Shown: in pieces, positions 11,288 through 38,721 of the stretch | Position numbering within the stretch: position 1 is the first letter of the stretch | Layout: each line of letters starts with the position of its first letter | Source of the DNA: an uncultured archaeon | GTDB lineage: Archaea > Asgardarchaeota > Lokiarchaeia > Sigyniarchaeales > SOKP01 | Reading direction: 5' to 3' | DNA: 38,721 nucleotides | Assembly (NCBI GenBank): GCA_964632315.1 | Contig: CAZWEM010000048.1 | Span: 1-38,721 of the forward strand | Notes under the pieces: model-generated | What the model was told of the DNA's origin: nothing | What the model saw: the letters and a program-made list of their open reading frames with translations, nothing else | The model's database searches: none | Position numbers and translations under genes: made by a program

Positions 11288-11353
11288 ATTGATTAATTCA
11301 ACTTTGAATTAAACTTTTTTAAAAAAATAATTAACTGATAAATTACACGCTAT

Positions 11354-12409: not shown

Positions 12410-12416
12410 AAAAAAT

Positions 12417-13823: not shown

Positions 13824-14598
13824 GTTTACTCCAATCTTTGCGTAATTCTTGATTAATTGCCGTTCCGGGCATGACATTTTTAGGGCAAACTTGATTACAA
13901 ATAAAGTATCTCTCGCATGCAGGCACCCCATCTTCTTTCATCACTCGAGAAACAATTGAATTTTGTTTTTCATGCTGAATTCTTGAATCATAAACAAATC
14001 TACTTGCTTTAGCTAATTGAGCAGGTCCAAGATAATTTGGATTTTTATTACTTACGGGACAAGCCCAACAGAGACCGCATAAAATGCAATATACGTATCT
14101 TTCAATGCGTTCCATTTGTTCAGGAGATTGTTTAGATTCCGGTTGTTTATAATTCCATTCCCTCGTAAAAAAGGGCTCGATTTCTCGAAAATGATTCCAG
14201 AACTTTTCTAAATCAACGACTAAATCTTTTATGACTCTCATATTAGGTGCTGGTTCAATTAAAATTTCGTGTTCTCTATCCCATGCTGGAACGTCTCCAT
14301 AAATAAAATCAATATTCTTGCTCCTTATGAATTTTTCGATGGGTTGAATAATTTCATTTACTGAGGAAATTTGAGTTTTACAAGCTAACATCGGCACCTT
14401 ATTTATTGTCATCCCACAAGAGCCACAGACTGCTCCTCTACAAGCGTATCGAAATGCTAAAGTAGAATCTAAATGATCTTGGATGTAGAATAATGCATCT
14501 AATACATCCATTCCCTTTTCGATTGGAACTTCAAAGCGATCATAGCGTACACTTCCATCGCCTGGATTTCTATAAATTAAAAATTTTTGTTTTTCCAT
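13816..14598 (-). CDS. sdhB: Succinate dehydrogenase/fumarate reductase iron-sulfur subunit
   Basis: RYACRGAVCGSC (2Fe-2S), CILCGLCWACP (4Fe-4S), CERYFICNQVCP (3Fe-4S), VIKDLVVD and YLGPA. Confidence 0.92.
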   Translation of the reverse strand: MEKQKFLIYRNPGDGSVRYDRFEVPIEKGMDVLDALFYIQDHLDSTLAFRYACRGAVCGSCGMTINKVPMLACKTQISSVNEIIQPIEKFIRSKNIDFIYGDVPAWDREHEILIEPAPNMRVIKDLVVDLEKFWNHFREIEPFFTREWNYKQPESKQSPEQMERIERYVYCILCGLCWACPVSNKNPNYLGPAQLAKASRFVYDSRIQHEKQNSIVSRVMKEDGVPACERYFICNQVCPKNVMPGTAINQELRKDWSKHE

Positions 14599-16313
14599 TA
14601 GTATTCACGCTCCTTTACTTCAAATATACCTAAAATTACTGGCTTTGTTTTTAATTCTAAATCACCATTTTTTCCTCTTGAGACAATAGAATGAACAAGA
14701 AAATTTTCATCATTACGTGTATCAAAGTCTCGTCTAAAATGAGCTCCTCTACTCTCCTTTCTCCATAATGCTGCATAAGTAGTCACTTCTGCAATATCAA
14801 GCATCGATCTTAACTCAAGCGTACGTGTTAAGCCATAATTGAACTTTCTATCCGATGTATCTACATGTACTTCTTTAAAATCTTTTTGTAATTGTCTTAA
14901 TGTGTCTAGTGCTACTTGCATGTCTTTCTCATTTCTGAATACTCCAACGTTACTATTCATGATAGAACCCATCTCATCTCTAATCTCTGCGGGTTTCTTT
15001 CCTTCATTATTTTGCCATCTAGAAAATAATTCCTCAACATTGTTAAGGACTTGTTCTTCAGCTCCTTTGAGCATATTTGTGGAGAAACTTTTCGGTAATC
15101 CTCTTTCTTTCAACTTTTTACCTATTAATCTCCCAAACACAGCAGTCTCAAGCAAAGAATTACCTCCTAACCTATTTGCTCCATGAACAGAAAGACATGA
15201 ACATTCACCCAAAACCCAGAGCCCATTTAAATCAGTCTCACCAACATCTCCCTTATATTTTGTTGCAATCCCTCCCATACTATAATGCTGACCAGGTTGG
15301 ATGGGTATGGGTTCTTCGATGGGATCAATTCCAGCAAAATGCATGCTAATTTCTCGGATCCCGGGTAATTTTTTATTGATTGTATCTGCTCCTAGGTGTG
15401 TCAGGTCTAAATTAACATACTCATCTTCAAAAGCATTCCCTTCTAAAACCTCGGTATCTATTGCTCTAGCTACAATATCTCGAGGAGCTAATTCCATTGC
15501 TTCAGGAGCATACTTGTTCATGAATCTTTCATGTTTATTATTATATAACAATCCCCCTTCACCTCGCGCACCCTCAGTTATTAAAATATTTGAGCCATAT
15601 AATGTAGTAGGATGAAATTGAACAAATTCACAATCCTCCATTGGCACTCCTGCGCGAAAAGCAGCCCCTACTCCGTCTCCAGTATTAATTACTGAGTTTG
15701 TAGAACGCTTGTAGATTCTACCAAATCCTCCTGTAGCAAGTATAACAGATGGAGCTCGAAAGATTACCAATTCCCCACTTGTGATATCTAATGAGATTAA
15801 TCCTGTAACGTTATTTTCAATTTTAATTAGGTCAATCAAAAAATATTCATCGAAAAACTTTACATCAAATCGAACACACTGCTGATATAACGTGTGTAAG
15901 AGTGCGTGTCCCGTCCTATCTCCTGCAAAACAAGTCCTTGGAAATCCTGCACCTCCAAAAGGACGTTGATTTATTAATCCATTCTCCAATCTCGAAAAAG
16001 GTGTTCCCATACTTTCAAACTCTAATACTGTTTTGGGGGCTTCCTCACACATCAACATGGCAATGTTTTGATCTGCAACAAAGTCGGCTCCCTTCACGGT
16101 GTCATATGCATGAACTTTTGGTGAGTCATCCTTTCCCTCTTCTAAATTACCTAATGCTGCATTTATCCCTCCTTGCGCATTAATAGAATGACTCCTTACA
16201 GGATAGACCTTACTTATTATTGCCGTGTTATATTTATCTGATAACTCTAAACCTATTCTCAGACCGCTTAAACCAGCCCCAACTATTACTACATCAAATT
16301 CTTCTAACCTCAT
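14598..16313 (-). CDS. sdhA: Succinate dehydrogenase/fumarate reductase flavoprotein subunit
   Basis: GAGLSG, covalent-FAD His in RSHSINAQGG, QFHPT, LITEGARGEGG, HYSMGG, HGANRLGGNSL and ESRGAH. TAATG coupling to sdhB. Confidence 0.95.
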   Translation of the reverse strand: MRLEEFDVVIVGAGLSGLRIGLELSDKYNTAIISKVYPVRSHSINAQGGINAALGNLEEGKDDSPKVHAYDTVKGADFVADQNIAMLMCEEAPKTVLEFESMGTPFSRLENGLINQRPFGGAGFPRTCFAGDRTGHALLHTLYQQCVRFDVKFFDEYFLIDLIKIENNVTGLISLDITSGELVIFRAPSVILATGGFGRIYKRSTNSVINTGDGVGAAFRAGVPMEDCEFVQFHPTTLYGSNILITEGARGEGGLLYNNKHERFMNKYAPEAMELAPRDIVARAIDTEVLEGNAFEDEYVNLDLTHLGADTINKKLPGIREISMHFAGIDPIEEPIPIQPGQHYSMGGIATKYKGDVGETDLNGLWVLGECSCLSVHGANRLGGNSLLETAVFGRLIGKKLKERGLPKSFSTNMLKGAEEQVLNNVEELFSRWQNNEGKKPAEIRDEMGSIMNSNVGVFRNEKDMQVALDTLRQLQKDFKEVHVDTSDRKFNYGLTRTLELRSMLDIAEVTTYAALWRKESRGAHFRRDFDTRNDENFLVHSIVSRGKNGDLELKTKPVILGIFEVKEREY

Positions 16314-16368
16314 TTGAATAATTACTCCTTTTTTTTCTATTAAAAATATTTTTACTAATTTTTATTAA

Positions 16369-17241
16369 TTATTTGAACGATTCGATTAGACTTCTAAATT
16401 TATCCATATCTAAGTCGCGTAAATATAAAGGTCGCTTATCCTTATCGTAGATTTGAATACTTTCTTCATAAATTCGGCGATTTGGATTTAAATATAATAC
16501 ACCTAAAGGTAATTTTTTAGATTGTACAGCTATTTTTAATGCATTAGCTTGATCGTAAGGGTCATAATCATCTTCTACATAATAACTATTTTCTTTATAC
16601 CACTGAAAAGTATTTACCCGATTGAAAGTCACGCAAGGGCATAAAAGATCTATGAGAGCATAACCCTTATGTTTTATTGCTTTTTTTAAGATTTCTTTTG
16701 TTTCATCAATATCACCAGTGAAGGCCCGTGCTACGAAGGATGCTTTAAGAGAAATTGCTACTGCAACTGGATTAAATGGTTCAATAATTACTCCATTAAT
16801 TTGAACAGGTGTCTTAAAACCAAGCTGACTTGTGGGAGATGCTTGACCTTTTGTCAATCCATAAACTTGATTATTATGAGCAATATTTACTATATTCGGA
16901 TTATATCGAATAGTGTGAATGAAATGATTGCCCCCTTCACTATAAGTACATCCATCTCCACTCATCGCAATAACGGTCAACTCGGGGTTAGCTGCTTTCA
17001 TACCTAAAGCATTTGACAAATATCTTCCATGTAGTCCATTGAAACTTTGAGAGTTAATAAAGTGAGGAAACTTACCTGCTTGTCCAATGCCAGAGACTAA
17101 TACAACATCTTGTTGTTTCAATTTTAACTCGGATAATGCTTCTTTCATAATCCTTAAGGCATTATAATTACCGCAACCTGGACACCAGTGAATTTCGATG
17201 TCCAAATCCCATATTTCTTTTTTTTCTTCTTTATCTGACAA
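16369..17241 (-). CDS. korB: 2-oxoacid:ferredoxin oxidoreductase beta subunit (TPP-binding)
   Basis: WCPGCG, SGIG, LHGR, GDG...[11 protein letters not shown] and PCVTFN. TTG start behind GAGGTGA. 2-oxoglutarate specificity is inferred from context only. Confidence 0.88.
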
Positions 17242-17242
17242 A

Positions 17243-18973
17243 TTAGATCACCTCAATAGCCTTTTTGATTTGATCCATTATCTCTTCAACTGAGAATGTA
17301 TAACCAGAATAGTTTAAAATCAGATGATCTACCTTACGATGCGTTTCAAGCTCAACTAAATTAGCAAATTGCCCCGTAGGATTACTCTCGATAACAATTA
17401 GTTTTTCTGCTTTTGAAATATAGTCATTCGTAATTTTGTTCAATGGATAAACTTGTTTATAATGTAGAAATCCGATATCAGATCGATTTAAATTATCAAG
17501 AGCTTCTTTAATCAAATAAAAGCTACTACCCCAGCTAATTACAAGATATTTAATCGCATCAGAACCGATATATTCGGGGGGAATTGCATTTTCTTTAATT
17601 AAAGAAAGCTTTTTTAATCTTTTTTCAACCGTTCGCATTCTAAGATCAGGATCTTCGGTGATATCTCCACTTTCAGTATGGGTATGAGAGTCAGCATCTA
17701 CTAAACCGTCCCCATATCCTGGAATACCACGGGGTGATATAATATCCTCAGTGAATTTATATCTTTCATAATCTTGCTCAGTTTTTATGATAAAATTCTT
17801 TCTTTCTAAATGTTCATAATCAATTTTACTTACATTGTAATAAGAATCAACAAGATATTGGTCTGTTAGAATAAACACGGGTACTTGATATTCTTGGGTT
17901 AAGTTAAATGCATTTTGAGTCAACAAAAATGATTCCTCAATAGAGTTAGGGGCTAAAATTATTCTTGGAAAATACCCTGCTCCAGCGTGCAAGACCAAGT
18001 TCAAGTCCTCTTGAGCAGTTCGAGTTGGCATTCCAGTGGCTGGTCCTGGTCGCTGTCCTACAATAATTACAAGGGGTAATTCACTCATTCCAGTTAAACT
18101 CACTCCTTCCCCCATTAATGAAAAGCCGCCACCCGAAGTAGATACTAAAGCACGAGCACCAGCATAAGAAGCGCCTAGTGCTTTATTTATTACGCTAATC
18201 TCGTCTTCAGATTGATCAACTATTATTGAAAATTCAGGACCGTGTTGTGCGAGAAATGTACCTATTCCTGTGCTTGGGGCCATTGGATAAAAAGTAACGT
18301 AGTTGACTCCACCTGCTATGGCACCTAATGCGATCCCTTGAGTGCCGTCGATAATGTAATCATCAATTACATCATCATTTTTTTGTATTGATTTTACTTT
18401 TGAGAGCTTCCCTTCATCGATTAACTCCATAGCTTTATCAAATCCTTTATCTGCTGCTTTTATATTATTTTGAATAATTTCCGATCCTTTCGACTTAAAA
18501 TTCTCCTCAAGTAAATCATGAAGAATACTTTTGTCTGCCCCCAAAATATTGCAAATCAATCCCAGAACTATTATATTCGCATAAACTTTACCACCGACAT
18601 CTTTAGACATTTCTAAAAAAGGTACCTCTATTTTTATTCCGCTAGGTTCTGAATCAGTGTCAAGAAACTCCTTTTCTCCAAGTATTATGCTTTCTGTAGT
18701 TAATTTGCCTTTTAGATGAGGAATAGCTGCATCATTTAACGGAAATAAAAAGTCAATTCTTTCGCTATATGCTCTAACTTTAACTGATGAGACTCTAATT
18801 GAGGTTGAGTTTACGCCACCCCTAACCCTAGACATGTATTCTCTCGTAGCAAATACGTTGAAACCCGATTTTTTAAGTGTCTTAGTAAGCAATGCTTCTA
18901 CAGTCTTAATACCTTGACCAGCAGCACCACATAACACCAAAGATATATCCTCTTTTTCGTTTAATTTTTCCAT
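17243..18973 (-). CDS. korA: 2-oxoacid:ferredoxin oxidoreductase alpha subunit (gamma-alpha fusion)
   Basis: [34 protein letters not shown] and [11 protein letters not shown]. Confidence 0.9.
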
Positions 18974-19191
18974 GATCTTAATCTCTTAGACCTATTTCTT
19001 TAAAATTATTAAATTATCTCTGTTTTAACATAGTACTAACAATTAGAATTAAAAAGCCTTTTATAATAAATCATAAATGAATGAATATGTAAATAACCGA
19101 TGCTAATTTTATGGTTTACCTCCATTTTATTTTTCTGCACCTTGTTAACGATAAAATTTATGAGATTTGAAGTAGATCTACAAAAGATTAA

Positions 19192-20364
19192 TTAAAGTAA
19201 CTCGTGTTCGATTCGAAAGTAGTAATTATGGAATAATGAAGAAATAAGATATGATTTAATCAACCTAAAATCCTGTTTATACCTTAAAAGATCATAAATG
19301 TAATAAGTTCGCTTAAACAACCAAGCTACAAATCCACTGAAAACAAACTTATTGAACAATTGGGCTACTCCATAATTTTTACCTAAAGATATGAACATGA
19401 ACCTAAGCGGCTTTAGACGCAACGGTTTTAATTTTTTCTCTTTTACCTTCCTAAAGAGCATTTTGGCTAAATAATCTGCTTGAATCTTAGCGATCTGAGC
19501 TAGCATTGGTGCATTTCCACCGATATATGGAAAATTGGAGGCATCACCAATGGAATATACATCTTCTAAACCTTCTACTTGACAGAAATGATTAACTTCA
19601 TAGGCTCTGTCGAATTGAAGATCAGAATCAATCATTATTGGTCTTGATCCAATGCAGATTATGATAAACTCAAAAGGATACTCCTTATCTCCAACGAAAA
19701 TAGATTTATTTTCAATCTTGGTCACTCTTTGATTGTAGAAAACATTGATATCCAGCTTTTTCATCTTTTTATTGATTATCGCATGAAACTCAGGAATACC
19801 TGGAAACAATTTTTTTTCTGCTACGAATATATCGATAATAATCTCGTTTTTCAACGTTTTTGCTAAAGAAGCAATCTCCGTAGCAAGCTCTATTCCTACT
19901 GCACCTCCTCCAATAATCGAAATAACAGGACGATGTCTACCAAAAGCGATCTTTAAGTGTTCATTAATCCTAATTGCATCAAATATATTTTTCATAGTGG
20001 GATAATTTTCTGAACCTTTAATAACCTTTAAAGCAGCGGCCCCAGGTGCGATAATTAAGTAGTCATATTTATAAAACTGAGAATTTTTTAGTTCAACTTC
20101 CTTTTTCTTGAAATAAATTTTTTTTACTGTTGATCGAATAAACAATGCTCGTTTTAACTCTTTTCTAATGTCAAAGAGAGGTAGCTCCTTCGGAATTTGT
20201 CCTACACATGCTTCATGTAATAGAGTATTATAAAGAAAATGATGGGATGGATTTATTAATAATACATCAAAATTTTCGAACGTTTCAATCTTTTTTGCTA
20301 ACCTAAATCCAGCAAATCCCGCTCCAATGATGATTACATTTAATCTTTTCGTTGAAACTTTCAT
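19192..20364 (-). CDS. ndh: FAD-dependent oxidoreductase, type II NADH dehydrogenase-like
   Basis: IIGAGFAG, YDYLIIAPG, IIGGGAVGIELA, YSIGD, AQIA and a C-terminal amphipathic segment SGFVAWLFKRTYY. Confidence 0.72.
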   Translation of the reverse strand: MKVSTKRLNVIIIGAGFAGFRLAKKIETFENFDVLLINPSHHFLYNTLLHEACVGQIPKELPLFDIRKELKRALFIRSTVKKIYFKKKEVELKNSQFYKYDYLIIAPGAAALKVIKGSENYPTMKNIFDAIRINEHLKIAFGRHRPVISIIGGGAVGIELATEIASLAKTLKNEIIIDIFVAEKKLFPGIPEFHAIINKKMKKLDINVFYNQRVTKIENKSIFVGDKEYPFEFIIICIGSRPIMIDSDLQFDRAYEVNHFCQVEGLEDVYSIGDASNFPYIGGNAPMLAQIAKIQADYLAKMLFRKVKEKKLKPLRLKPLRFMFISLGKNYGVAQLFNKFVFSGFVAWLFKRTYYIYDLLRYKQDFRLIKSYLISSLFHNYYFRIEHELL

Positions 20365-20541
20365 GTGAAGTTAAAACCTCATTATTTTACGCTCAAATTC
20401 ATTCCTATTTAAACTAAATTTGAGCCATTCCTATATTTTACGATTACTTTCAACCTATGATGATAATTACTAATATAACGTTTTATCTTAAGATTTATTA
20501 ATTATCTCCGAATTCTAAATTCAGATTAAAAGTTGATTTGA

Positions 20542-21999
20542 TTATCCTAAAAATTTTCTTCTGCTTGCAGCTAAAAGGATCTTTTCTGTCAAGCCTTCTG
20601 GTTGTTCTTTTTTTATTGAATGAATTATATCATCAGTATATGTTTTATGGGTCTCGTCAAGTTCATAATCAATATTGAAATCTTTTAATTTTAATTGAAA
20701 ATCGAATTTCAAGAAATCTTGATTAGGATTGTAGTATTTTAATGCTTCTTTCAGATCTTCTTCAAAATTAACATATTGAGTTAGTATAAAATCATAATCT
20801 TTTTGAGTCAAACAATTAAGTCCTAAAAGTGAGGGAGGAATTCCTATCGAATACATCGCAGCAGTGAATCCAATTGCTCTGGGAAGACAAAACTCACCTA
20901 CATCACGACAATAGCCAAAAAGTCCTATATGTAAGTTCCTTCTTCTTCTTTTTGGAGAATAAGGCGCTATTCTATTAACCATTGGGGCTAAACTTAATAC
21001 CTGTTTAGAATATGCATCTGAAAATCTTTCTATTATTTCTAAACATTTATCTTCCTCCATTAAATGCGGTCTCTTTACAGGAATCTCCTTTAACCTTTTC
21101 ATCGCATTAATTACCTCATCGGGAGGATTATCATACTTAAATGCTGATTGAATCGTGTAAGTATAAACACTAGGATATTCCTTTGTAACGCTATCAACCG
21201 TTTCTGGTTTAAAATTTCCGCGAAATACGGGAGACCCTACCCCAATGATGGGATAAAATTCAACACTAATTTTCTCAGACAAATTCTGAATACGCTGATG
21301 TGCCACTTTGTTGATAAGTACTGCCGAAAGTAGCCCATAATTAAGGGCGGGATCGGAACGCGCATAAAACACTCTTTGATATTCTACCTTTTTATTACTT
21401 AAGTAAGCATCAAGAATTTTATGCGAATCTAACATGTGTTCTTTATCTTCAAATAAAGGAATAACATTAATGCTTTTGGGAGCGAATTTTCCCACCCATT
21501 CTGCGATTGTTATATCATTTTCTATTGGTCGGTAATCTTGTTTTCCTATGACAAATTTATGATAATAGGAATATATTCTATCAAGTGCTAATTGAGATTG
21601 AGCCATTGGTAAAATAACCTCAAAAATCGGGGGAATTTCATCTTTAAAGACAGTATGAGATGCATCAAAAGAACGAGGGATGCTTTCTAAAGTCTCTATC
21701 AATATTTTGGCTTCTGGTATCTCAAATTCAGGATTTGGAAGCCTTAAAGTAAGGAAAACATCTTCACCAAGTCTTTTCTTATTAAAAAAATTTTTATATC
21801 GAGTTAGTAATTTTTTAACCACAAAAGCGTCACCTTCCTTACCCTCATAATCCCACATCTGCTCATCACAACCCAGATGAGAAAATGCATAAAATGCCTC
21901 CTCTACTTCATCTTCATTATCCATATCTGGAGAATTAGCGAAGAAGGGGATGTTAACATTATCAGGATGTTGGGTACTCATGCATTTAGGAATGGTCAT
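20542..21999 (-). CDS. ppcA: Archaeal-type phosphoenolpyruvate carboxylase
   Basis: IPKCMSTQHPDN, MWDYEGK, VIPLFED, ARSDPALNYG, TIQSAFKYD and LPRAIGF. ATG 21999 preferred because the ORF-track GTG at 22008 lies within a GGTGA RBS. Confidence 0.93.
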   Translation of the reverse strand: MTIPKCMSTQHPDNVNIPFFANSPDMDNEDEVEEAFYAFSHLGCDEQMWDYEGKEGDAFVVKKLLTRYKNFFNKKRLGEDVFLTLRLPNPEFEIPEAKILIETLESIPRSFDASHTVFKDEIPPIFEVILPMAQSQLALDRIYSYYHKFVIGKQDYRPIENDITIAEWVGKFAPKSINVIPLFEDKEHMLDSHKILDAYLSNKKVEYQRVFYARSDPALNYGLLSAVLINKVAHQRIQNLSEKISVEFYPIIGVGSPVFRGNFKPETVDSVTKEYPSVYTYTIQSAFKYDNPPDEVINAMKRLKEIPVKRPHLMEEDKCLEIIERFSDAYSKQVLSLAPMVNRIAPYSPKRRRRNLHIGLFGYCRDVGEFCLPRAIGFTAAMYSIGIPPSLLGLNCLTQKDYDFILTQYVNFEEDLKEALKYYNPNQDFLKFDFQLKLKDFNIDYELDETHKTYTDDIIHSIKKEQPEGLTEKILLAASRRKFLG

Positions 22000-22060
22000 A
22001 TCATTCACCAGTTTAATTTAGATTTTAACAGTTAATCCTTTATGAAAGTCATCTGAAATA

Positions 22061-24013
22061 TTATAATTCACATATACGATCCTCCATTTTTGGAGTTAGA
22101 TTTATAAGACTCCCAGCCAAAATTGCCTTTATTTGACGTTTACTTAAATCATGTTTAGTTTCATAAGATTGATTCTTGGTTTCGTTAAATACCTTGATAG
22201 TACTACTTTTTTGAATTACATTTTTAATATTTTCAATTTTAATTGTATCTCCTTGAACAATTTTATTCCAATCATCTTTATTTTTAAAAGTAAGAGGAAG
22301 TATACCAAAATTAATTAAATTCTGCCAATGAATTCGAGCGAAACTCCGAGCTACAACTAACCTTAAGCCTATATATCGAGGAGCTAGGCTTGCATGTTCT
22401 CTACTGGATCCTTGACCGTAGTTTTCTCCAGCTATTATTGCAAACCCTTTCTCTTGGAATTTTATGGCTCTATCATAAAAACCATCTTCAACAACCTTAA
22501 ATACGAATTTGCTAATTTCAGGAACGTTACTTCTAAATGGTAATACTTTTGCTCCTGCCGGCATAATCTCATCAGTAGAGATATTATCGCCGACTTTTAA
22601 AACGACGTTAAGACTTAAGGACTCTGGTAATTTTGTAAATTTCGGCAAAGATTTGATGTTTGGACCTTTTCTCAAATCTATTGCCAAGCATTTTCTGGGA
22701 GGAGGTACTAACATAGAAGTGTTGATTATTAATTGTTCCGGCTCTTTAAATATTGGATAATCCATATCTAAAGTACGAGGATCGGTAATGACTCCTGTAA
22801 TCGCTGAGGCTGTGGCTGTTTCAGGGCTGCATAAATACACCATATCGCCTTCAGTTCCAGACCTATCCGGAAAGTTTCTGGGAACCGTTCGTAAGCTTTT
22901 TCCATTAGTAGGAGGAGCCTGTCCCATTCCAATGCAGCCATTACATCCTGCTTCGTGAATTCGGGCGCCTCCTCGAACCAGATAAGTGAAAAGCCCCATC
23001 TCTACGAGATTTTCTAAAATTTGACGTGTAGTAGGATTTACATCATAGGATACCTTTTCTTGAACCTTCCTTTCCTTTAACATCAAAGCACATATTCCAA
23101 AGTCCCTCAAACCAGGATTTGCTGATGAACCTACATAAGATTGAAGTATTTCTTCACCAGCGACATCAGCTACAGGTTTCACTTTACCTGGACTGCTTGG
23201 TAATGCTATTAAAGGTTCAACTTCAGACAAGTCAATTTCCTCATGATAATCATAATCACAATTTTCATCAGCAGAGAGTTGAACATAATCATTAACACGG
23301 CCTTGTGTCGCAAGAAATCTTTCGACTTCTCCATCTGCCGGAAAGACACTACTGGTAGCGCCAAGTTCCGTGCCCATATTACATATTACGTGGCGATCCA
23401 TCGCAGTAAGAGTCTTAACACCAGGGCCATAATATTCAATGATTCTACCAACTCCTCCTTTTACATCATGTCTCTTCAACATTTCTAAAATAACATCTTT
23501 AGCACTAACCCAATCATTCAACTTACCAGTTAATTTAACGCCCCAAACTGCTGGAGATTGAATAAATAAGGGTTTTCCCGCAATTGCTAAGGCAACTTCT
23601 AAGCCTCCCGCTCCAATTGCGAGCATTCCGAGTGAACCCGCTGCGGGAGTATGACTGTCGGAACCAAGTAGGCTTTTTCCGGGAATTCCAAATCTTTCCA
23701 TGTGTATGGGGTGACTTACTCCATTCCCTGGTCGACTAAACCATAATCCGAAGCGCTGGGCTCCTGTATAGAGAAAGAGATGGTCATCAGAATTTTTGAA
23801 ATCTGCTCTAATTAAATTGTGATCAACATATTGAACAGATACCTCAGTTTTGGCTCTATCTAGTTCCATGGCTTCTAATTCAAGCATAACCATCGTTCCC
23901 GTAGCATCTTGTGTTAATGTTTGGTCGATTCTGAGCCCAATTTCTTTTCCAATTTCCATATTTCCCTCAATTAAATGAGATTTAATCAGTTTTTCGGCAA
24001 TATTCAAACCCAC
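22061..24013 (-). CDS. acn: Aconitate hydratase, copy 2 (GSSAN variant)
   Basis: IDQTLTQDATGTM, GSDSHT, CNGCIG and GENYGQGSSREHA. GTG start behind GAGGTGA, 6 nt after the citrate synthase stop. Confidence 0.88.
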   Translation of the reverse strand: MGLNIAEKLIKSHLIEGNMEIGKEIGLRIDQTLTQDATGTMVMLELEAMELDRAKTEVSVQYVDHNLIRADFKNSDDHLFLYTGAQRFGLWFSRPGNGVSHPIHMERFGIPGKSLLGSDSHTPAAGSLGMLAIGAGGLEVALAIAGKPLFIQSPAVWGVKLTGKLNDWVSAKDVILEMLKRHDVKGGVGRIIEYYGPGVKTLTAMDRHVICNMGTELGATSSVFPADGEVERFLATQGRVNDYVQLSADENCDYDYHEEIDLSEVEPLIALPSSPGKVKPVADVAGEEILQSYVGSSANPGLRDFGICALMLKERKVQEKVSYDVNPTTRQILENLVEMGLFTYLVRGGARIHEAGCNGCIGMGQAPPTNGKSLRTVPRNFPDRSGTEGDMVYLCSPETATASAITGVITDPRTLDMDYPIFKEPEQLIINTSMLVPPPRKCLAIDLRKGPNIKSLPKFTKLPESLSLNVVLKVGDNISTDEIMPAGAKVLPFRSNVPEISKFVFKVVEDGFYDRAIKFQEKGFAIIAGENYGQGSSREHASLAPRYIGLRLVVARSFARIHWQNLINFGILPLTFKNKDDWNKIVQGDTIKIENIKNVIQKSSTIKVFNETKNQSYETKHDLSKRQIKAILAGSLINLTPKMEDRICEL

Positions 24014-24019
24014 TTGAGA

Positions 24020-25318
24020 TCACCTCTGAGAGATCGGCACGTATTCTTTGTTAATATCGCCCACATAGCGAAGTCGAGGACGGATTAATTTATTATCAGA
24101 GAGCTGTTCTATCGCATGAGCAACCCAACCAGCACTTCTTGATGCAGCGAATAAAGGCGTAAATAATTTTGTTGGAATTCCCAATGCGTGAAGTAATCCT
24201 GCAGAATAAAGATCAACATTAGGATAAATATTTTTTTCTTCAATCATAAAATCCTTCAGGGTTTCAGTCATTTCATATATATTATCGATTTGCTCATGAT
24301 ATTTCCTATGTTCCATATCAGGAATCTTTTCAAAAGTTTCTCCACTATCAATTTTACCCCAAAATTTCTTAGAAAGCTCTCTTAAAATTTTAGCACGTGG
24401 ATCCCAAACTTTATAGACTCTATGTCCAAAGCCCATTATCAAGTCTTTTTTTTCAAGTTTATTTTTCGCCCAAGGAATCACATTATCCTTCCTTTTAATG
24501 TCATCTAACATTGCCCTAATTACACGTTCATTAGCTCCACCATGTAAAGGACCCCTAAGAGTGCCTATTGCACTTGTAATACCACTATAAATATCAGAAA
24601 GTGTCGAGACTGTGACTCGACAAGAGAATGTAGATGAGTTTATGGAGTGATCGGCATGACAAATGAGAACCTTATCAAAAGCAGAGGTGAATTCCTCATC
24701 TGGTTCATTTCCAGTCATCATGTAATAATAATTTCCAGCATGACATAGGTTTTTTGAGGGCTCAACAAGAGGTAGATTTGATTGAATGCGATGAGAAAAA
24801 GCCAAAATTGTTGGAATTTTTGCGATAATCCTTATTCCTTTTCTGATATTAGCTTCTTCTGAAAAGTCGTAATCATCAGAATCATATAATGATAGTGCTG
24901 AAATTGCAGTACGGAGTAATTCGATTCTAGTGGTTTCACGCGGAAAACTTTTTAAAATTGTTAATATATTGTCGGGGATTTGTCTTTCATTGATTAACTC
25001 ATTCTCTAAATCTCCAAGCTGTTTTTTATTTGGCAACTCTCCATAAATAAGAAGATAGATTACTTCCTCGAATGAGGAATTTTCTACGAGAGTCTTGAGA
25101 GAATACCCCCTATAATATAATTTTCCATGAATTCCATCAATATATGTAATTTTACTCTCATCGACATAGATTCCTACTAAACCTTTATATGTCTTCGAGC
25201 GATCGATATCGCATAACTTTGGTTCTGTTTCTTCTTCATAATCTTCACACGCATATGAGGTAGTTGTCTCACATGGTTCCGATTTCTGATTCACTTTATC
25301 CTCAATCATTAGACTCAA
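24020..25318 (-). CDS. gltA: Citrate synthase (Si-type; 2-methylcitrate synthase not excluded)
   Basis: GKLYYRGY, HADH, GPLHGGANE, MGFGHRVYK-x-x-DPR, YPNVD and LIRPR. Confidence 0.92.
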   Translation of the reverse strand: MSLMIEDKVNQKSEPCETTTSYACEDYEEETEPKLCDIDRSKTYKGLVGIYVDESKITYIDGIHGKLYYRGYSLKTLVENSSFEEVIYLLIYGELPNKKQLGDLENELINERQIPDNILTILKSFPRETTRIELLRTAISALSLYDSDDYDFSEEANIRKGIRIIAKIPTILAFSHRIQSNLPLVEPSKNLCHAGNYYYMMTGNEPDEEFTSAFDKVLICHADHSINSSTFSCRVTVSTLSDIYSGITSAIGTLRGPLHGGANERVIRAMLDDIKRKDNVIPWAKNKLEKKDLIMGFGHRVYKVWDPRAKILRELSKKFWGKIDSGETFEKIPDMEHRKYHEQIDNIYEMTETLKDFMIEEKNIYPNVDLYSAGLLHALGIPTKLFTPLFAASRSAGWVAHAIEQLSDNKLIRPRLRYVGDINKEYVPISQR

Positions 25319-29180: not shown

Positions 29181-29266
29181 ATAATAAGTGATATCAATTT
29201 TAATAAAAAGTATTAAACAATTAGTTAAGCGTTAAGATTATAAAATATACTTAGGAGGGAATTAAG

Positions 29267-30391
29267 ATAAGATTACTTGAATATGAAAGTAAAAAAATAT
29301 TTGCTGATTATACAATTCCATTAGTACCTAATATTGTAATAGAGAAGGACGACGATCTAAAAAAAAAAGTTTCTGGATTTAAATTTCCTGCAATAATTAA
29401 ATCTCAAATTGCTATTGGTAGTAGGAAGAAAGCAGGTTTAATAAAAACAGCCAATTCTCAAAATGAAGCGGTAAAATTATGTAAAGAATTCTTCAATCGT
29501 AAAGTAGCTGGTTATGGAGTTAAGGCGATTTTGATCGAAGAACTTGTCGACATTAAACATGAATATTACGTTTCAGTGGCATTAGATGTATCCGAAAGAA
29601 AGTTCTACCTAATTGCAAGCATAAAAGGTGGGATAGATATTGAAGAAGTTTCCAAAAAAAGCCCTGAAGATATTTTTAAAATTAGTTTTTCCTATTCACA
29701 AGGTTTAACAGATGAAATTGCGCAAGAAATGGCTCATAAATTAGGTTTTAATGATAAATTAGAAGTAAGCACAGTCGAAATACTTAAAAAATTATGGAAG
29801 GTTACGAAAGATCTCGAGGCTCAACTAGTCGAAATAAACCCGCTAATACTTACACCATCAGGATTAATTGCAGTCGACGCTAAAATGATATTAGATGATG
29901 ATTCAGCTTTTAGACAGCCAATTGTTCGTGATTTAAAAATAAAAAAGGAAACCGAATTGGAAAAAATTGCGAACGAAGCAGGATTTTCCTTCGTCGAACT
30001 AGATGGAGACATTGGTATTCTTGCAAACGGAGCAGGTTTAACAATGGCATTATTAGACGTACTTTCTAGTATGGGATTAAAGCCTGCTAATTTTTTAGAT
30101 GTTGGTGGGGGTGCAAGTAAAGAGCGCGTGTATAAAGCTTTAGAGTTACTATTTAAATTAAAACCAAATGGTATTTTAATAAATATATTTGGGGGGATAA
30201 CGAGATGTGATGTCGTAGCTAAAGCAATTATCCAAGCATTAGAAGATTTCAAAAATGCCCCACCAATCATAATAAGATTAACAGGGACGAATGATAAAGA
30301 AGGTATTGAGCTTCTAAAAAATGATGGTATAAATGCATACCAAGAAGTCATGGAAGCTGTAAATAAGTTGAAAGAGGTGTTAAATGAATAA
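29267..30391 (+). CDS. sucC: Succinyl-CoA synthetase beta subunit (non-canonical ATA start)
   Basis: The frame is open 88 codons upstream of the ORF-track start: (I/M)RLLEYESKKIFADYTIP...IKSQIAIGSRKKAG. AGGAGG RBS at 29253-29258. Also shows EINPL, NGAGLTMA, PANFLDVGGG and NIFGGITRCD. Confidence 0.88.
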   Translation: MRLLEYESKKIFADYTIPLVPNIVIEKDDDLKKKVSGFKFPAIIKSQIAIGSRKKAGLIKTANSQNEAVKLCKEFFNRKVAGYGVKAILIEELVDIKHEYYVSVALDVSERKFYLIASIKGGIDIEEVSKKSPEDIFKISFSYSQGLTDEIAQEMAHKLGFNDKLEVSTVEILKKLWKVTKDLEAQLVEINPLILTPSGLIAVDAKMILDDDSAFRQPIVRDLKIKKETELEKIANEAGFSFVELDGDIGILANGAGLTMALLDVLSSMGLKPANFLDVGGGASKERVYKALELLFKLKPNGILINIFGGITRCDVVAKAIIQALEDFKNAPPIIIRLTGTNDKEGIELLKNDGINAYQEVMEAVNKLKEVLNE

Positions 30392-31252
30392 ATGTATATT
30401 AATGAAAACTCCAAAGTGGTAGTCCAAGGAATTACTGGTAAGCAAGGAACGTTTCATACAAAATTAATGCTTGACTATGGCACTAAAATTGTTGCAGGTG
30501 TCACACCCGATAAGGGAGGGTTGGAAGTACATAAAGTGCCTGTGTTTAATACAATGAAAGAAGCTATTAAAGAAACAGACTGTGATACTAGTATTGTTTT
30601 TGTACCTGCAAAATTCACGTATGGAGCTGTCAAGGAAAGTATTTTAGCTGGAATAAATATGACTGTCATTATAACAGAGGATGTACCAGTTTTCGATATG
30701 TTGAGGTTATTTGAACTTTCTAGAAGGAAAAATACTCATCTAATTGGCCCTAATTGTCCTGGAATGATGATTCCAGATAAGATCAAACTTGGAATAATGC
30801 CAGCAGACTTGTGTCATTTTGGAAATGTGGCGATTATTTCAAAGAGTGGTACTTTATCTTACGAAATAACTAAAGCAATAGGAAATGCAGATATCGGAGT
30901 TTCAGCTTATATTGGGATTGGAGGTGATCCAGTCAGAGGAATTACTATGAAAGAAGCTACTCAATATTATGTTGAAGATGAACAAACAAAATTGATAGTT
31001 TTAATCGGAGAAATAGGAAGCGATGAAGAGGAGAAAACTGCGAAATACTTATCAGATCAATCTGATAAACCTGTCGTTGCTTATATTGCAGGAAAGAGTG
31101 CTCCTGAAGGCAAAAGAATGGGACATGCTGGAGCAATTATTTCAGGAGATGTTGGTACAGCTGAAGGAAAGATAAAGGCATTAAAGAATGTTGGAGCGCG
31201 AATAGCATTTACACCATGGGAAGTTCCAAAGTTGATTAAAGAAGTATTATAG
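30392..31252 (+). CDS. sucD: Succinyl-CoA synthetase alpha subunit
   Basis: VVQGITGKQGTFH, IGPNCPG, SKSGTLSYE, IGIGGD, GEIG and phospho-His motif RMGHAGAI. Confidence 0.93.
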   Translation: MYINENSKVVVQGITGKQGTFHTKLMLDYGTKIVAGVTPDKGGLEVHKVPVFNTMKEAIKETDCDTSIVFVPAKFTYGAVKESILAGINMTVIITEDVPVFDMLRLFELSRRKNTHLIGPNCPGMMIPDKIKLGIMPADLCHFGNVAIISKSGTLSYEITKAIGNADIGVSAYIGIGGDPVRGITMKEATQYYVEDEQTKLIVLIGEIGSDEEEKTAKYLSDQSDKPVVAYIAGKSAPEGKRMGHAGAIISGDVGTAEGKIKALKNVGARIAFTPWEVPKLIKEVL

Positions 31253-35047: not shown

Positions 35048-35089
35048 GGGAAGCGCTTCCCATATTTACCAACTTGGTAAAATTTAAAT
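35048..35089 (+). promoter_or_regulatory. Two adjacent palindromes plus a TATA-like box upstream of aclB
   Basis: GGGAAGCGCTTCCC (35048-35061), TTTACCAA-C-TTGGTAAA (35065-35081) and TTTAAAT (35083-35089). Confidence 0.55.
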
Positions 35090-35158: not shown

Positions 35159-36451
35159 TTGGCAACGAAAAATATTTATGAATTTGACTCTAAAAAGCTC
35201 ATCGCAAGGGAATTGCCGAAATATTATCCCGGATTTCAGTATCACAACAAATTAGCTTTAATCGAATGCGACACCGATATTGAGAAGGTAATTGAACAGA
35301 ATCCGTGGATGAAAACTGAAAAAGTTGTAGTTAAACCTGATCAACTCTTTGGAAAACGAGGTAAAGCAAATTTAATTTTACTTGATGCTGATTGCGATCA
35401 AATGAAAGGTTTTTGTAATGATAATTTGGAGAAGGTCTGCGTAATATCCGGCATTGAAGGCGAAATCACTCGTTTACTCGTGGAACCATTCATTCCGCAT
35501 GATAAAGAATATTATGTTTCGTTTACTACTGAAAGAGAAAATAATGTAATCCATTTTAGTTTCGAAGGAGGAATTTTTGTCGAAGAAAATTGGGACAAGG
35601 TTATACACATACCTATTCCTGTGGATCAAAAGATTCAGGATTTCGATCTCTCCAGTAAGATGCCCGATTTAGGGGATTTAAAGGATGAGTTAATTCCATT
35701 CATTAAAGGTTTATATCAAGTGTTTGTTGATCAAGATTTTGCGTTTCTTGAAATTAATCCTTTTGCCATCACCAACGAGAAGAAAATAGTACCATTAGAC
35801 GTAAAAGCTCGACTCGATGATACTGCAGCATTCTTACATCTTGATACTTGGGGTAACCCTCAAAATCCAATCGAGTTTCCAAGTGGTTTTGGTCAAAAGA
35901 TGAGTCCTGAAGAAGAGATGATTAAAAATCTGGATGAAAAAACAGGAGCTTCATTGAAATTAACTATTCTTAACAGGAAAGGGCGTATTTGGACCATGGT
36001 CGCTGGAGGAGGAGCTAGTGTTATATATACGGATACAATAGCAGATCTTGGTCTTGCGGCCGAACTATCGAATTATGGTGAATATTCTGGTAATCCCAGT
36101 CAAGAACACACCCAAATATATGCCCAAACACTAATAGATCTCATTACTGAAAATCCAGATCCTGAAGGCAAAGAGAAATACTTAATTATAGGTGGAGGAA
36201 TTGCTAATTTTACTGATGTAAAAGCAACATTCAGAGGGATTGTCGCTGCAATCAAAAATTCGGTAGAAAAATTAAAGAAAGCAAACGTGAAGATATTCGT
36301 TCGTAGAGGAGGACCGAATGAAAAGCAAGGTCTGGAATTGATGAGACAAGTGGGAGATGAAACAGGCATTCCAATAGAAATTTACGATCGATATAATAGC
36401 ATGACACGTCCAGTCGCCAGAATGAAACAAAAAATGGAGGGCGAAGAATAA
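35159..36451 (+). CDS. aclB: ATP-citrate lyase small subunit (ATP-grasp plus citrate-binding domain)
   Basis: VVKPDQLFGKRGK, GASLKLTILN-x-x-GRIWTMVAGGGASVIY, NYGEYSG, GGGIANFTDV and VRRGGPN. TTG start. Confidence 0.95.
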   Translation: MATKNIYEFDSKKLIARELPKYYPGFQYHNKLALIECDTDIEKVIEQNPWMKTEKVVVKPDQLFGKRGKANLILLDADCDQMKGFCNDNLEKVCVISGIEGEITRLLVEPFIPHDKEYYVSFTTERENNVIHFSFEGGIFVEENWDKVIHIPIPVDQKIQDFDLSSKMPDLGDLKDELIPFIKGLYQVFVDQDFAFLEINPFAITNEKKIVPLDVKARLDDTAAFLHLDTWGNPQNPIEFPSGFGQKMSPEEEMIKNLDEKTGASLKLTILNRKGRIWTMVAGGGASVIYTDTIADLGLAAELSNYGEYSGNPSQEHTQIYAQTLIDLITENPDPEGKEKYLIIGGGIANFTDVKATFRGIVAAIKNSVEKLKKANVKIFVRRGGPNEKQGLELMRQVGDETGIPIEIYDRYNSMTRPVARMKQKMEGEE

Positions 36452-38287
36452 ATGGAAGATTATGAATTATTTGATGAGAATACTCAAGCCATTATTTACG
36501 GACTTCAAGCAAATCCTGTCCAGAGAATGCTTGATTTTGATTATGTTTGTCGCAGGAAGAAGCCTTCCGTAGCTGCAATTATCAGAGAAACTCAAGATGC
36601 GGCTATAGCATATCACAAAGTCTTCTGGGGAAGCCAAGAGATTGTCATACCAGTTTATAAAACGCTTAAACTAGCAATAAAAAAGCATCCTAGCGCAGAT
36701 GTCATGATTAATTTTGCTTCGTTTAGATCTGCATACGATACCAGCATGGAAGCACTAGAATCTGATACGATCAGAGTAGTCGTTATTATAGCTGAGGGCG
36801 TCCCAGAAACGCAGAGCCGATTGCTAATTAAGGTTGCGAACAGACGAAATAAAATTATTATTGGTCCAGCAACGGTGGGAGGAATTCGTGCAGGAGCTTT
36901 CAAAATCGCTAACACGGCTGGAACCTTGGAAAATATCAAACTTTCAAAGCTTTATCGACCCGGTTCAGTAGGGTTTGTTAGTAAAAGTGGTGGACTTTCA
37001 AACGAGATGAATTTTATGATCGCTGAAAATACTGATGGAATATATGAATGTATAGCAATTGGTGGCGACCGGTATCCTGGATCTCGGTTAATTGATCATT
37101 TGTTAAGATATGAAGCTAATCCTAAAATTAAGATGTTAGTCTGCTTGGGAGAAATTGGAGGCACTGAAGAATATGAAATTGTTGAAGCTTTAAACACAAA
37201 AGAGATCACAAAACCTATTGTGATATGGGTTACGGGGACTGCTGCTCGCATACTTCCTAAAGGACTTCAATTTGGCCATGCTGGAGCAATGGCTGGGAGT
37301 GATAGAGAAACTGCAGAGGCGAAGAATAAAGCTTTAAAGGAAGCTGGGGCATTAGTACCAGATTCTTATGAGGATTTCGACAAATTGATTCATCGATGCT
37401 ATGAAGATTTGAAGAGCAAGGGAATAATAAAGGAGAAAGAAGAAGTAGAACCACCTGAAATACCAATGGATTTCAAGGAAGCGGTTCGTTTAGGATTAGT
37501 TAGAAGACCAACTGATGTTGTCGTGACAATTTCTGATGATCGTGGTGACGTTCCAACATTTGCTGGCGTTGGACTTGATAAAATTATTGAAGAAGACAAA
37601 TCTCTAGGATTTGTTATCGGATTATTGTGGTTTAAACGAGAGCTACCCGAATTCGCGCAAAAATTCATCGAAATGGTCATTAAATTAACGGCAGACCACG
37701 GTCCAGCTGTTTCAGGGGCTCATAATGCAATTATAACTGCAAGAGCGGGTAAGGATTTGATGTCTTCTCTTGCTTCCGGAATTCTTACAATAGGGCCTCG
37801 ATTTGGAGGTGCAATCTCGGATGCGGCAAAATATATGAAAGAAGCTCTCCAGAAAGAAATGAAACCACAAGAATTCGTCAAATACATGAAAGATGTAGTT
37901 AAGATTAACATTCCTGGCATTGGACATCGCATTAAATCAGTCCAGAACCCAGACATAAGAGTTGTTCTGCTTAAAAAGTTTGTCATGGAGAATTTCAAGA
38001 AACATCCTCATCTCGATTTTGCTTTAGAAGTGGAAAAAATCACGACTGCTAAGAGAAACAACTTAATTCTGAACGTTGATGGTTGCATTGGTATAACTTT
38101 TCTTGATCTTTTAGAGAACTTAGATTTTTCACCCGAAGAAATTGAAGATGTAATAAGCAGTGAAGCCTTGAACGGGTTATTTGTGCTTGGACGTTCTATA
38201 GGAATGATGGGGCACGTGTTTGATCAAAAGCGTCAGAGAGCGGGTTTATATCGACAACCATGGGATGAAATTTTGTTTTCTGAATAA
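36452..38287 (+). CDS. aclA: ATP-citrate lyase large subunit (CoA-binding, phospho-His and citryl-CoA lyase domains)
   Basis: VQRMLDFDYVC, NFASFRSAY, IGPATVGGI, QFGHAGA, ADHGPAVSGAHN, IPGIGHRIKS and LILNVDG. Confidence 0.96.
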   Translation: MEDYELFDENTQAIIYGLQANPVQRMLDFDYVCRRKKPSVAAIIRETQDAAIAYHKVFWGSQEIVIPVYKTLKLAIKKHPSADVMINFASFRSAYDTSMEALESDTIRVVVIIAEGVPETQSRLLIKVANRRNKIIIGPATVGGIRAGAFKIANTAGTLENIKLSKLYRPGSVGFVSKSGGLSNEMNFMIAENTDGIYECIAIGGDRYPGSRLIDHLLRYEANPKIKMLVCLGEIGGTEEYEIVEALNTKEITKPIVIWVTGTAARILPKGLQFGHAGAMAGSDRETAEAKNKALKEAGALVPDSYEDFDKLIHRCYEDLKSKGIIKEKEEVEPPEIPMDFKEAVRLGLVRRPTDVVVTISDDRGDVPTFAGVGLDKIIEEDKSLGFVIGLLWFKRELPEFAQKFIEMVIKLTADHGPAVSGAHNAIITARAGKDLMSSLASGILTIGPRFGGAISDAAKYMKEALQKEMKPQEFVKYMKDVVKINIPGIGHRIKSVQNPDIRVVLLKKFVMENFKKHPHLDFALEVEKITTAKRNNLILNVDGCIGITFLDLLENLDFSPEEIEDVISSEALNGLFVLGRSIGMMGHVFDQKRQRAGLYRQPWDEILFSE

Positions 38288-38345
38288 ATTTAATCTTCAA
38301 AATTTAAATATGAACAAAAATATAAAATGAAAAGAGGTAACAAAT

Positions 38346-38721
38346 ATGGAAGATATGATCCAAAAAGCCAAAGAACACTTTGGAAATATTGTAAAGGAAC
38401 AGCTTGAACGAGTGGAAGCGTTAAAAAACGCTGAAGATTGGATTGATTACACTCAAGTAAAACCAATCATTATTGGAGTTGCTGGTGGAGACGGAATTGG
38501 GCCTGAAATTACAAACCATGCCCGTAAAATCATGGAATTCCTTCTTAAAGAAGAAATCGAAGAAGGAAAGGTTGAAATTCGAGATATAGAAGGACTAACA
38601 ATTGAAAATCGGGCAAAACACATGAAAGCCATCCCTGACGATGTGTTGAAACAGTTGAAAGAATGTAATGTAATTTTAAAAGGACCGACACTTACACCGC
38701 GCAAAGGAGATGGATGGCCCA
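38346..38721 (+). CDS. Isocitrate/isopropylmalate family dehydrogenase, 5' part (truncated by window end); probably isocitrate dehydrogenase
   Basis: Not in the ORF track. Manual translation gives MEDMIQKAKEHF...GDGIGPEI...VILKGPTLTPRKGDGWP with no stop. GAGGT RBS at 38334-38338. Confidence 0.82.
   Translation, partial: MEDMIQKAKEHFGNIVKEQLERVEALKNAEDWIDYTQVKPIIIGVAGGDGIGPEITNHARKIMEFLLKEEIEEGKVEIRDIEGLTIENRAKHMKAIPDDVLKQLKECNVILKGPTLTPRKGDGWP

Follow-up and report, generated by a model that had tools for sequence, protein, structure and literature searches.

An uncultured Lokiarchaeia-type archaeon (GenBank assembly GCA_964632315.1) carries an operon for an ATP-citrate lyase (ACL), with the subunit genes aclB and aclA followed by a gene of the isocitrate dehydrogenase (IDH) family. 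The operon lies at the end of contig CAZWEM010000048.1 (C48), which was analyzed over its whole length of 38,721 bp (the window). Taken together, the observations are very probably best explained by a genuine aclB-aclA-idh operon that codes for an ACL of the eukaryote-like kind; the gene would be old in Asgard archaea, would belong to a mobile module, and would not be the sister of the opisthokont enzyme, ACLY. The genome (4.45 Mb in 119 contigs, 99.5% complete, with an estimated contamination of 8.57%) holds a single ACL locus.

The aclB gene (positions 35159-36451, plus strand) starts with TTG and codes for the small subunit of 430 aa, which consists of an ATP-grasp and a citrate-binding domain. 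It is followed by aclA (36452-38287, plus strand, ATG start), whose 611-aa product, the large subunit, combines in one chain a CoA-binding module, a CoA-ligase module with the phosphohistidine, and a citryl-CoA lyase module homologous to citrate synthase. The junction of the two genes reads GAA GAA TAA ATG, with a Shine-Dalgarno-like GGAGGG run 12 nt upstream, an arrangement that would fit translational coupling. The IDH-family open reading frame begins 58 nt past the aclA stop codon and has GAGGT ahead of its start. A preliminary description of this DNA, made from the sequence alone, had reported an intact aclB-aclA-idh-like operon with a TAA-ATG abutment, a 58-nt gap, and preserved catalytic motifs. 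All of these features are borne out by the reading of the sequence, with GIANFT found in AclB and QFGHAGA, ADHGPAVSG, GHRIKS, and NVDG in AclA; AclB also carries a VRRGGPN motif.

The window holds only the 5′ part of the idh gene (38346-38721, plus strand), since C48 ends within the gene; the continuation lies on contig C46 of the same assembly. The final 79 nt of C48 (38643-38721) overlap the start of C46 inside this gene, with 78 of the 79 positions identical, and the frame runs on for 298 aa in C46. Because of this overlap and the continuation of the frame, the idh gene is probably whole, with a predicted product of about 397 aa. The break between the two contigs is probably due to strain variation. 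The piece encoded on C48 matches the Pfam Iso_dh domain. For both pieces, the best NCBIfam model is that of the NADP-dependent IDH (PRK09222), and both fall under its cut-off because each of them is partial.

Domain architecture and catalytic residues identify AclBA as a predicted heteromeric ATP-citrate lyase (EC 2.3.3.8). AclB consists of the Citrate_synth_N and Citrate_bind domains (PF24948, E value of 2e-64, and PF16114, E value of 1e-76), and AclA contains the CoA_binding (PF02629), Ligase_CoA (PF00549), and Citrate_synt (PF00285) domains. Alignment of AclA with human ACLY (PDB entry 6POE_A) equates His276 of the QFGHAGA motif with the phosphohistidine H760 and Glu115 of the IIAEG motif with E599. 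In the lyase module, the GHR motif corresponds to H975/R976 and Asp543 of the NVDG motif to D1026, the equivalent of the residue that is changed to Ala in the 6ZNW variant. Among proteins with solved structures, AclA scores 797 bits against ACLY-B of Methanothrix (Methanosaeta) concilii (6HXI_B), 733 bits against human ACLY, and 424 bits against the Chlorobium enzyme (6HXJ_B), compared with at most 115 bits for the succinyl-CoA synthetase alpha subunit and 87 bits for citryl-CoA synthetase. It aligns end to end with 6HXI_B and with residues 491-1093 of human ACLY. The respective scores of AclB are 440 bits for M. concilii ACLY-A (6HXI_A; residues 2-419 aligned to 2-413), 335 bits for human ACLY, 176 bits for Chlorobium, and 66 bits for the Hydrogenobacter counterpart. 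In the AclA tree described below, the sequence falls inside a 64-row clade (support 96/96) together with the eukaryotes and Methanothrix. The scores and the tree thus assign the predicted enzyme to the eukaryote-like ACL subfamily, the ACLY/M. concilii type, unlike the Chlorobium type of the reductive tricarboxylic acid (rTCA) cycle.

The prototype of the C48 enzyme, and its best match of solved structure, is ACLY-A/B of M. concilii (6HXI and 6ZNW; Verschueren et al. 2019, Nature 568:571), which likewise consists of two separate subunits encoded in the aclB-aclA order and has the same conserved catalytic His and Asp. The copies from Methanothrix metagenome-assembled genomes (MAGs) are ∼57% (AclA) and ∼50% (AclB) identical to the C48 proteins; they differ in belonging to another phylum and in having an aconitase gene, rather than idh, after aclA. 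Human, animal, and fungal ACLY (6POE and 6HXH) share the subfamily and the chemistry, with ∼55% identity over the AclA part, but are single fused polypeptides that contain a regulatory linker, and they branch beside a form found in Chloroflexaceae. The classical rTCA enzyme of Chlorobi, Nitrospirota, and Campylobacterota, exemplified by Chlorobium limicola AclBA (6HXJ), has the same two-subunit architecture and catalyzes the same reaction but is far more distant, both in the above scores and in its place in a distant group of the tree. The Hydrogenobacter citryl-CoA synthetase and citryl-CoA lyase (6HXQ and 6HXP) consist of homologous modules and, between them, achieve the same net cleavage by two successive steps. 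However, each is an enzyme of its own, and their matches to the C48 subunits reach only 87, 66, and 59 bits; in AclA, as in every ACL, the lyase module and the CoA-ligase subunit are fused.

Many public records of Asgard AclA carry the name “citrate/2-methylcitrate synthase” or “succinyl-CoA synthetase alpha subunit.” No NCBIfam model of ACL attains its cut-off for either AclA or AclB, which is probably why the former name has been assigned. The “citrate/2-methylcitrate synthase” labels on Asgard AclA should be corrected.

Based on homology and the conserved residues, AclB would take up ATP and citrate, and His276 of AclA would become phosphorylated, leading to citryl-phosphate and then to citryl-CoA. 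The C-terminal citrate synthase-homologous module of AclA, with its Asp543, would then split citryl-CoA into acetyl-CoA and oxaloacetate. The reaction is expected to be near equilibrium and reversible, and ACL, the presumably cotranscribed IDH, and aconitase would form a citrate module that interconverts acetyl-CoA plus oxaloacetate and 2-oxoglutarate.

The preliminary description had made the evolutionary interest of this locus depend on an Asgard host. The closest AclA proteins (80 to 96% identity) belong to metagenomes and to MAGs labeled Lokiarchaeota or Promethearchaeota, and two relatives named through exact matches of their AclA, “Candidatus Lokiarchaeum ossiferum” B-35, whose closed genome measures 6,035,313 bp, and “Candidatus Harpocratesius repetitus,” belong to the same order as the host. 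These proteins and relatives identify the host as an Asgard archaeon of the Lokiarchaeia type. The NCBI phylum labels Hod-, Odin-, Hermod-, and Thorarchaeota are attached to proteins that are 84 to 87% identical to each other and look unreliable. Of these, Hodarchaeota, Odinarchaeota, and Hermodarchaeota, found on proteins 86 to 87% identical to the Loki-type AclA, were judged unreliable and were not used for taxonomy.

A full-length match to ACL is present in 34 of the 41 genomes of the host genus. The survey of Asgard genomes proposed in the preliminary description reveals a patchy distribution, with ACL encoded in 122 of the 400 sampled genomes (28 of the 90 high-quality ones) and in 14 of 85 genera. 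The carriers are two Loki families, a single Heimdall genus (20 of 22 genomes), Thor genera, and one family with small genomes. By family, ACL was found in 81 of 134 genomes of f1, 8 of 14 of f2, 20 of 22 of f16 (labeled Heimdallarchaeota), and 3 of 3 of f26, with 9 more in the Thor genera (family f31 is labeled Thorarchaeota); it was not found in the ∼28 other families of this 400-genome sample. Named carriers include “Ca. Lokiarchaeum ossiferum,” “Ca. Harpocratesius repetitus,” Heimdallarchaeota, and Thorarchaeota. The copies from the Loki, Heimdall, and Thor lineages, the Asgard core, form one clade with support of 100/100 in both the AclA and the concatenated trees, so the ACL gene, as judged from these trees, is predicted to be old within Asgard archaea. 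A separate observation concerns a 1.39-Mb single-contig record in the Heimdall genus g49 (locus L104, G106:C1:750200-753700), whose ACL nests among the Thermoplasmatota copies and is just 59% identical to the C48 copy. This record either is misassigned or represents a separate gene acquisition.

Outside the Asgard archaea, a pattern scan of species-representative genomes detected ACL in at least 531 confirmed stretches from many phyla, so the preliminary statement that the enzyme is mainly eukaryotic or found in rTCA bacteria, and sporadic in archaea, is outdated. Similarity to fungal ACLY was judged on the best 80 of these at least 531 stretches, which include representatives of Chloroflexaceae, Bathyarchaeia, Thermoplasmatota, Methanothrix, Syntrophus, Elusimicrobiota, Myxococcota, Thermotogota, Bipolaricaulota, and DPANN. 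The best 80 prokaryotic loci are 56 to 65% identical to fungal ACLY, and the first four of these groups are the most similar to it (57 to 65%); the Asgard copies are ∼55% identical, and no Asgard locus is among the 80. The subunits are encoded by separate aclB and aclA genes in all 80 of these non-Asgard loci, and this is the default arrangement in every prokaryote examined. In addition, the split enzymes of Ascomycota nest within the fused fungal ACLY in the AclA tree. For these two reasons, the split architecture, which the preliminary description had likened to that of plants and many fungi, does not indicate any special link to them.

The gene order of the C48 operon is also widespread. 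The aclB-aclA-idh arrangement is kept in a genome of the same genus, in “Ca. Harpocratesius,” and in one Heimdall genome, with IDH proteins 79% identical, and in several Loki and Thor genomes, the gene that immediately precedes aclB codes for aconitase 1. Among the named non-Asgard loci, 36 of 80 have an aconitase gene on the same strand within 3 kb of aclBA, and eight loci from Thermoplasmatota, Bathyarchaeia, and Chloroflexota encode a close IDH homologue (63 to 79% identity) just downstream of aclA. An unrelated metagenome contig, that of P0126, has the order acn-aclB-aclA-(PEPCK-IDH). Overall, the aconitase-aclB-aclA-IDH module is common to Thermoplasmatota, Bathyarchaeia, Chloroflexota, Elusimicrobiota, Myxococcota, and Asgard archaea (loci L014 to L093), which indicates that the whole module has probably been horizontally mobile among anaerobic bacteria and archaea. 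Since this linkage extends well outside the Asgard archaea, the C48 operon can be viewed as one instance of a mobile citrate module.

The place of the Asgard enzymes relative to those of eukaryotes was addressed with a tree of AclA (75 rows, 609 columns; LG+C20+F+G4 with posterior mean site frequencies, PMSF) and a tree of the concatenated AclB and AclA (64 rows, 1,044 columns). The grouping of Asgard archaea with eukaryotes was an a priori hypothesis, taken from the preliminary description; the Chloroflexaceae row was added after the first tree. In the AclA tree, the fungal and nematode-like ACLY form a clade (100/97) that is joined to the Chloroflexaceae form (100/99), and the maximum-likelihood (ML) neighbor of this group is a set of Thermoplasmatota and Bathyarchaeia (73/88). 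In the concatenated tree, all Asgard rows group together (88/73) and are nested in a 44-row clade (100/100), which in turn is part of a prokaryotic clade of 51 rows (100/98); the eukaryotes (96/99) fall outside it. Forcing a clade of Asgard archaea and eukaryotes onto this tree costs 180 log-likelihood (lnL) units and is rejected by the approximately unbiased (AU) test (P = 1.4e-6). When three long-branched distant rows were removed, leaving an analysis without an outgroup (a quick tree of the same model), the branches between Asgard archaea and eukaryotes had Shimodaira-Hasegawa-like approximate likelihood ratio (SH-aLRT) values of 91, 97, and 97, and the forced clade was again rejected (113 lnL, P = 0.0022). 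The Methanothrix copies form a clade of their own in both the AclA and the concatenated trees and are not the sisters of the Asgard group; Micrarchaeia (DPANN) adjoin the Asgard archaea with weak support.

Several points weigh against this placement. The backbone of the AclA-only tree is weakly supported, and with AclA alone, forcing Asgard archaea, eukaryotes, and Chloroflexaceae together costs 35 lnL and is not rejected (P = 0.119). AclB was added to the analysis because the AclA-only test was not decisive, and concatenation assumes a single shared history of the two subunits. In addition, the eukaryotes in these trees are opisthokonts only (fungi and nematode-like ACLY), with the ACLA/B of plants, algae, and protists outside the sample; this plant-type split clade may belong near the Asgard/DPANN part of the tree. 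On balance, the Asgard ACL is predicted not to be the sister group of opisthokont ACLY, and the suggestion that the C48 copy bears on the origin of the eukaryotic enzyme is not supported, with the Asgard clade placed inside a prokaryotic clade that excludes opisthokont ACLY.

The Chloroflexaceae form is unusual in its own right. In several MAGs of this family (loci L014 and L020; P0091, P0106, P0115, and P0123), AclA is 1,000 to 1,040 aa long and consists of a normal AclA followed by a second, partial copy that resembles the CoA-ligase and lyase modules, with aclB as a separate upstream gene. Among the matches listed, no other prokaryotic protein resembles fungal ACLY as closely (65% identity), and in the trees this form is the sister of the eukaryotic group. 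A transfer of ACL between Chloroflexaceae and eukaryotes may have taken place, in either direction. Three long-branched sequences from short contigs, P0126 and P0127/P0276, were considered as potentially eukaryotic and ruled out, as the genes on their contigs are packed tightly in the manner of prokaryotes.

Upstream of aclB, the sequence contains a putative operator/promoter (35048-35089) that consists of the palindrome GGGAAGCGCTTCCC (35048-35061), a second palindrome, TTTACCAACTTGGTAAA (35065-35081), and a TATA-like TTTAAAT. The GGGAA-N4-TTCCC palindrome, ∼100 nt upstream of aclB, recurs in seven related Asgard loci (L008, L009, L010, L012, L094, L096, and L100), with conserved arms and a variable center; the second, A/T-rich palindrome is conserved in part. 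The GGGAA-N4-TTCCC element is likely a transcription factor-binding site that governs ACL, and it probably regulates the operon.

The remainder of the window is an island of TCA cycle genes, with aconitase 1 (2637-4565), sucCD, and aclBA-idh on the plus strand. Aconitase 1, assigned with Pfam, is the paralogue whose gene immediately precedes aclB in other genomes, both Asgard and non-Asgard, as seen in tblastn-based comparisons of synteny. The sucC and sucD genes for succinyl-CoA synthetase (29255-31252, plus strand; Pfam domains ATP-grasp_2/Ligase_CoA and CoA_binding/Ligase_CoA) adjoin aclBA in genomes of the same genus. The frame of sucC (29255-30391) is open for 378 aa, but none of ATG, GTG, and TTG occurs in its N-terminal part; ATT AAG ATA at 29261 comes after an AGGAGGG run, and a start at the first canonical codon, TTG at 29531, would cost the ATP-grasp domain its first 92 residues. 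Either a noncanonical start codon or an upstream micro-exon is suggested by this arrangement. On the minus strand, a co-oriented block of ∼15 kb (10151-25318) has citrate synthase (gltA) at its head and, according to Pfam assignments, also encodes aconitase 2, an archaeal phosphoenolpyruvate (PEP) carboxylase, an ndh-like protein, the alpha and beta subunits of 2-oxoacid:ferredoxin oxidoreductase, SdhA, SdhB, FumC, an M19 dipeptidase, and, at its end, a flavin mononucleotide (FMN)-dependent dehydrogenase. Citrate synthase, ACL, two diverged aconitases, and SdhAB without an anchor are thus found together on a single contig. No canonical malate dehydrogenase was seen among the Pfam assignments of the contig. 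Elsewhere, the genome encodes the acetyl-CoA synthase/CdhC of the Wood-Ljungdahl pathway.

The direction in which ACL operates can be considered in light of this context. In the host genome, cleavage of citrate, the reductive direction, is somewhat favored, because a canonical citrate synthase is encoded on the same contig. Together with the conserved palindrome, the presence of that gene suggests a regulated cleavage role.

The strongest alternative, less probable than cleavage yet with a fair amount in its favor, is that ACL runs mostly in the opposite direction and acts as an ATP-conserving citrate synthase that converts acetyl-CoA, oxaloacetate, ADP, and Pi to citrate, ATP, and CoA and feeds aconitase and IDH for the formation of 2-oxoglutarate. 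Such a role of ACL was reportedly described in Desulfobacter postgatei by Moeller, Schauder, Fuchs, and Thauer in 1987. Two findings from other genomes weigh against the cleavage reading. “Ca. L. ossiferum” (G171) and “Ca. H. repetitus” (G032) have closed genomes, and a search of these for the Citrate_synt family, in which Re-citrate synthase was not searched for, gave no match except aclA; this favors a citrate-forming role in those relatives. The same search, with the same limit as to Re-citrate synthase, gave no match but aclA in the two Methanothrix MAGs behind loci L047 and L055, so in all of these genomes ACL may be the sole enzyme that forms or cleaves citrate. Furthermore, the acn-aclBA-idh linkage would be equally apt for the oxidative branch, the Wood-Ljungdahl pathway with its CdhC could supply acetyl-CoA, and the subfamily is concentrated, among the matches listed, in energy-limited anaerobes (Syntrophus, Methanothrix, Bathyarchaeia, and Thermoplasmata). 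However, with the canonical citrate synthase heading the TCA block of the host, a second citrate-forming enzyme would be less necessary there. For Lokiarchaeia in general, a mainly reverse operation of ACL is possible but somewhat doubtful.

A complete autotrophic rTCA cycle for CO2 fixation is a less probable interpretation of the operon than either of these roles, even though the contig encodes many of the required enzymes: ACL, a KorAB-like 2-oxoacid:ferredoxin oxidoreductase, SdhAB/FrdAB-like proteins, fumarase, succinyl-CoA synthetase, two aconitases, IDH, and PEP carboxylase. It is countered by the citrate synthase of the genome, by the lack of anchor genes for SdhAB, and by the malate dehydrogenase not seen on the contig; because Wood-Ljungdahl genes, including CdhC, are present, a full cycle of this kind would be unnecessary. 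Also, cultured relatives are said to be peptide-fermenting syntrophs, as reported by Imachi in 2020 and Rodrigues-Oliveira in 2023.

It is still less probable, and indeed quite unlikely, that eukaryotic cytosolic ACLY descends directly from the Asgard ACL, or is its sister, having been inherited via the archaeal host. The one clade that spans Loki, Thor, and Heimdall archaea means that an Asgard ancestor may have had ACL. The Asgard proteins belong to the same subfamily as fungal and animal ACLY at ∼55% identity, and the AclA-only AU test leaves room for the grouping. An origin from the archaeal host has been rated possible but speculative (Santana-Molina et al. 2025, PMC11976288), and Micrarchaeia, found weakly beside the Asgard archaea in the present trees, are DPANN members, the group with which eukaryotic split ACLA/B branch according to that study. 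On the other hand, both AU tests that included AclB reject the clade, at least three well-supported branches separate the two groups, many non-Asgard prokaryotes among the best 80 loci are closer to fungal ACLY than any Asgard copy, the gene is patchy in Asgard archaea, and two published analyses (PMC11976288; 10.1101/2022.10.25.513756) did not recover monophyly either. Finally, contamination of the MAG with this contig or its recent transfer from bacteria, a bacterial transfer having been raised in the preliminary description, can be set aside as extremely improbable, since the contamination estimate of the MAG, the clear mobility of the subfamily between domains, and the Thermoplasmatota-type copy in the Heimdall-genus record G106 are outweighed by closest homologues of 79 to 87% identity that all come from genomes of the same genus or family with the same neighbors (sucCD and aclBA-idh among them), by the fully supported Asgard clade, and by a G+C content of ∼34% that is uniform along the contig.

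Both the occurrence of ACL in Asgard archaea and its position apart from the eukaryotic enzymes have already been published, and the present results agree with those reports. Santana-Molina et al. (2025, PMC11976288) described ACL in several Asgard lineages and found that the eukaryotic enzymes were not monophyletic with the Asgard homologues; a 2022 bioRxiv preprint (10.1101/2022.10.25.513756) found ACL in most Asgard phyla, likewise without such monophyly. In these studies, ACLY branched with Thermoplasmatota-E3 and ACLA/B with DPANN, and in the present AclA tree, the group of eukaryotes and Chloroflexaceae likewise has the Thermoplasmatota/Bathyarchaeia set as its ML neighbor. Both the finding and the evolutionary question are thus in print; what is added here are the AU tests, the Chloroflexaceae sister group, the synteny of the acn-aclBA-idh module, and one more member from a different genome.

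ACLY provides the cytosolic and nuclear acetyl-CoA of eukaryotes, so an Asgard origin of this enzyme, if true, would trace a hallmark of their metabolism back to the archaeal host. For the Lokiarchaeia themselves, a reverse-operating ACL, if true, would add a step of substrate-level phosphorylation to the fermentation of these energy-starved syntrophs. With ACL present in a cultured strain, the direction of the reaction in Lokiarchaeia is a question that culture can address.

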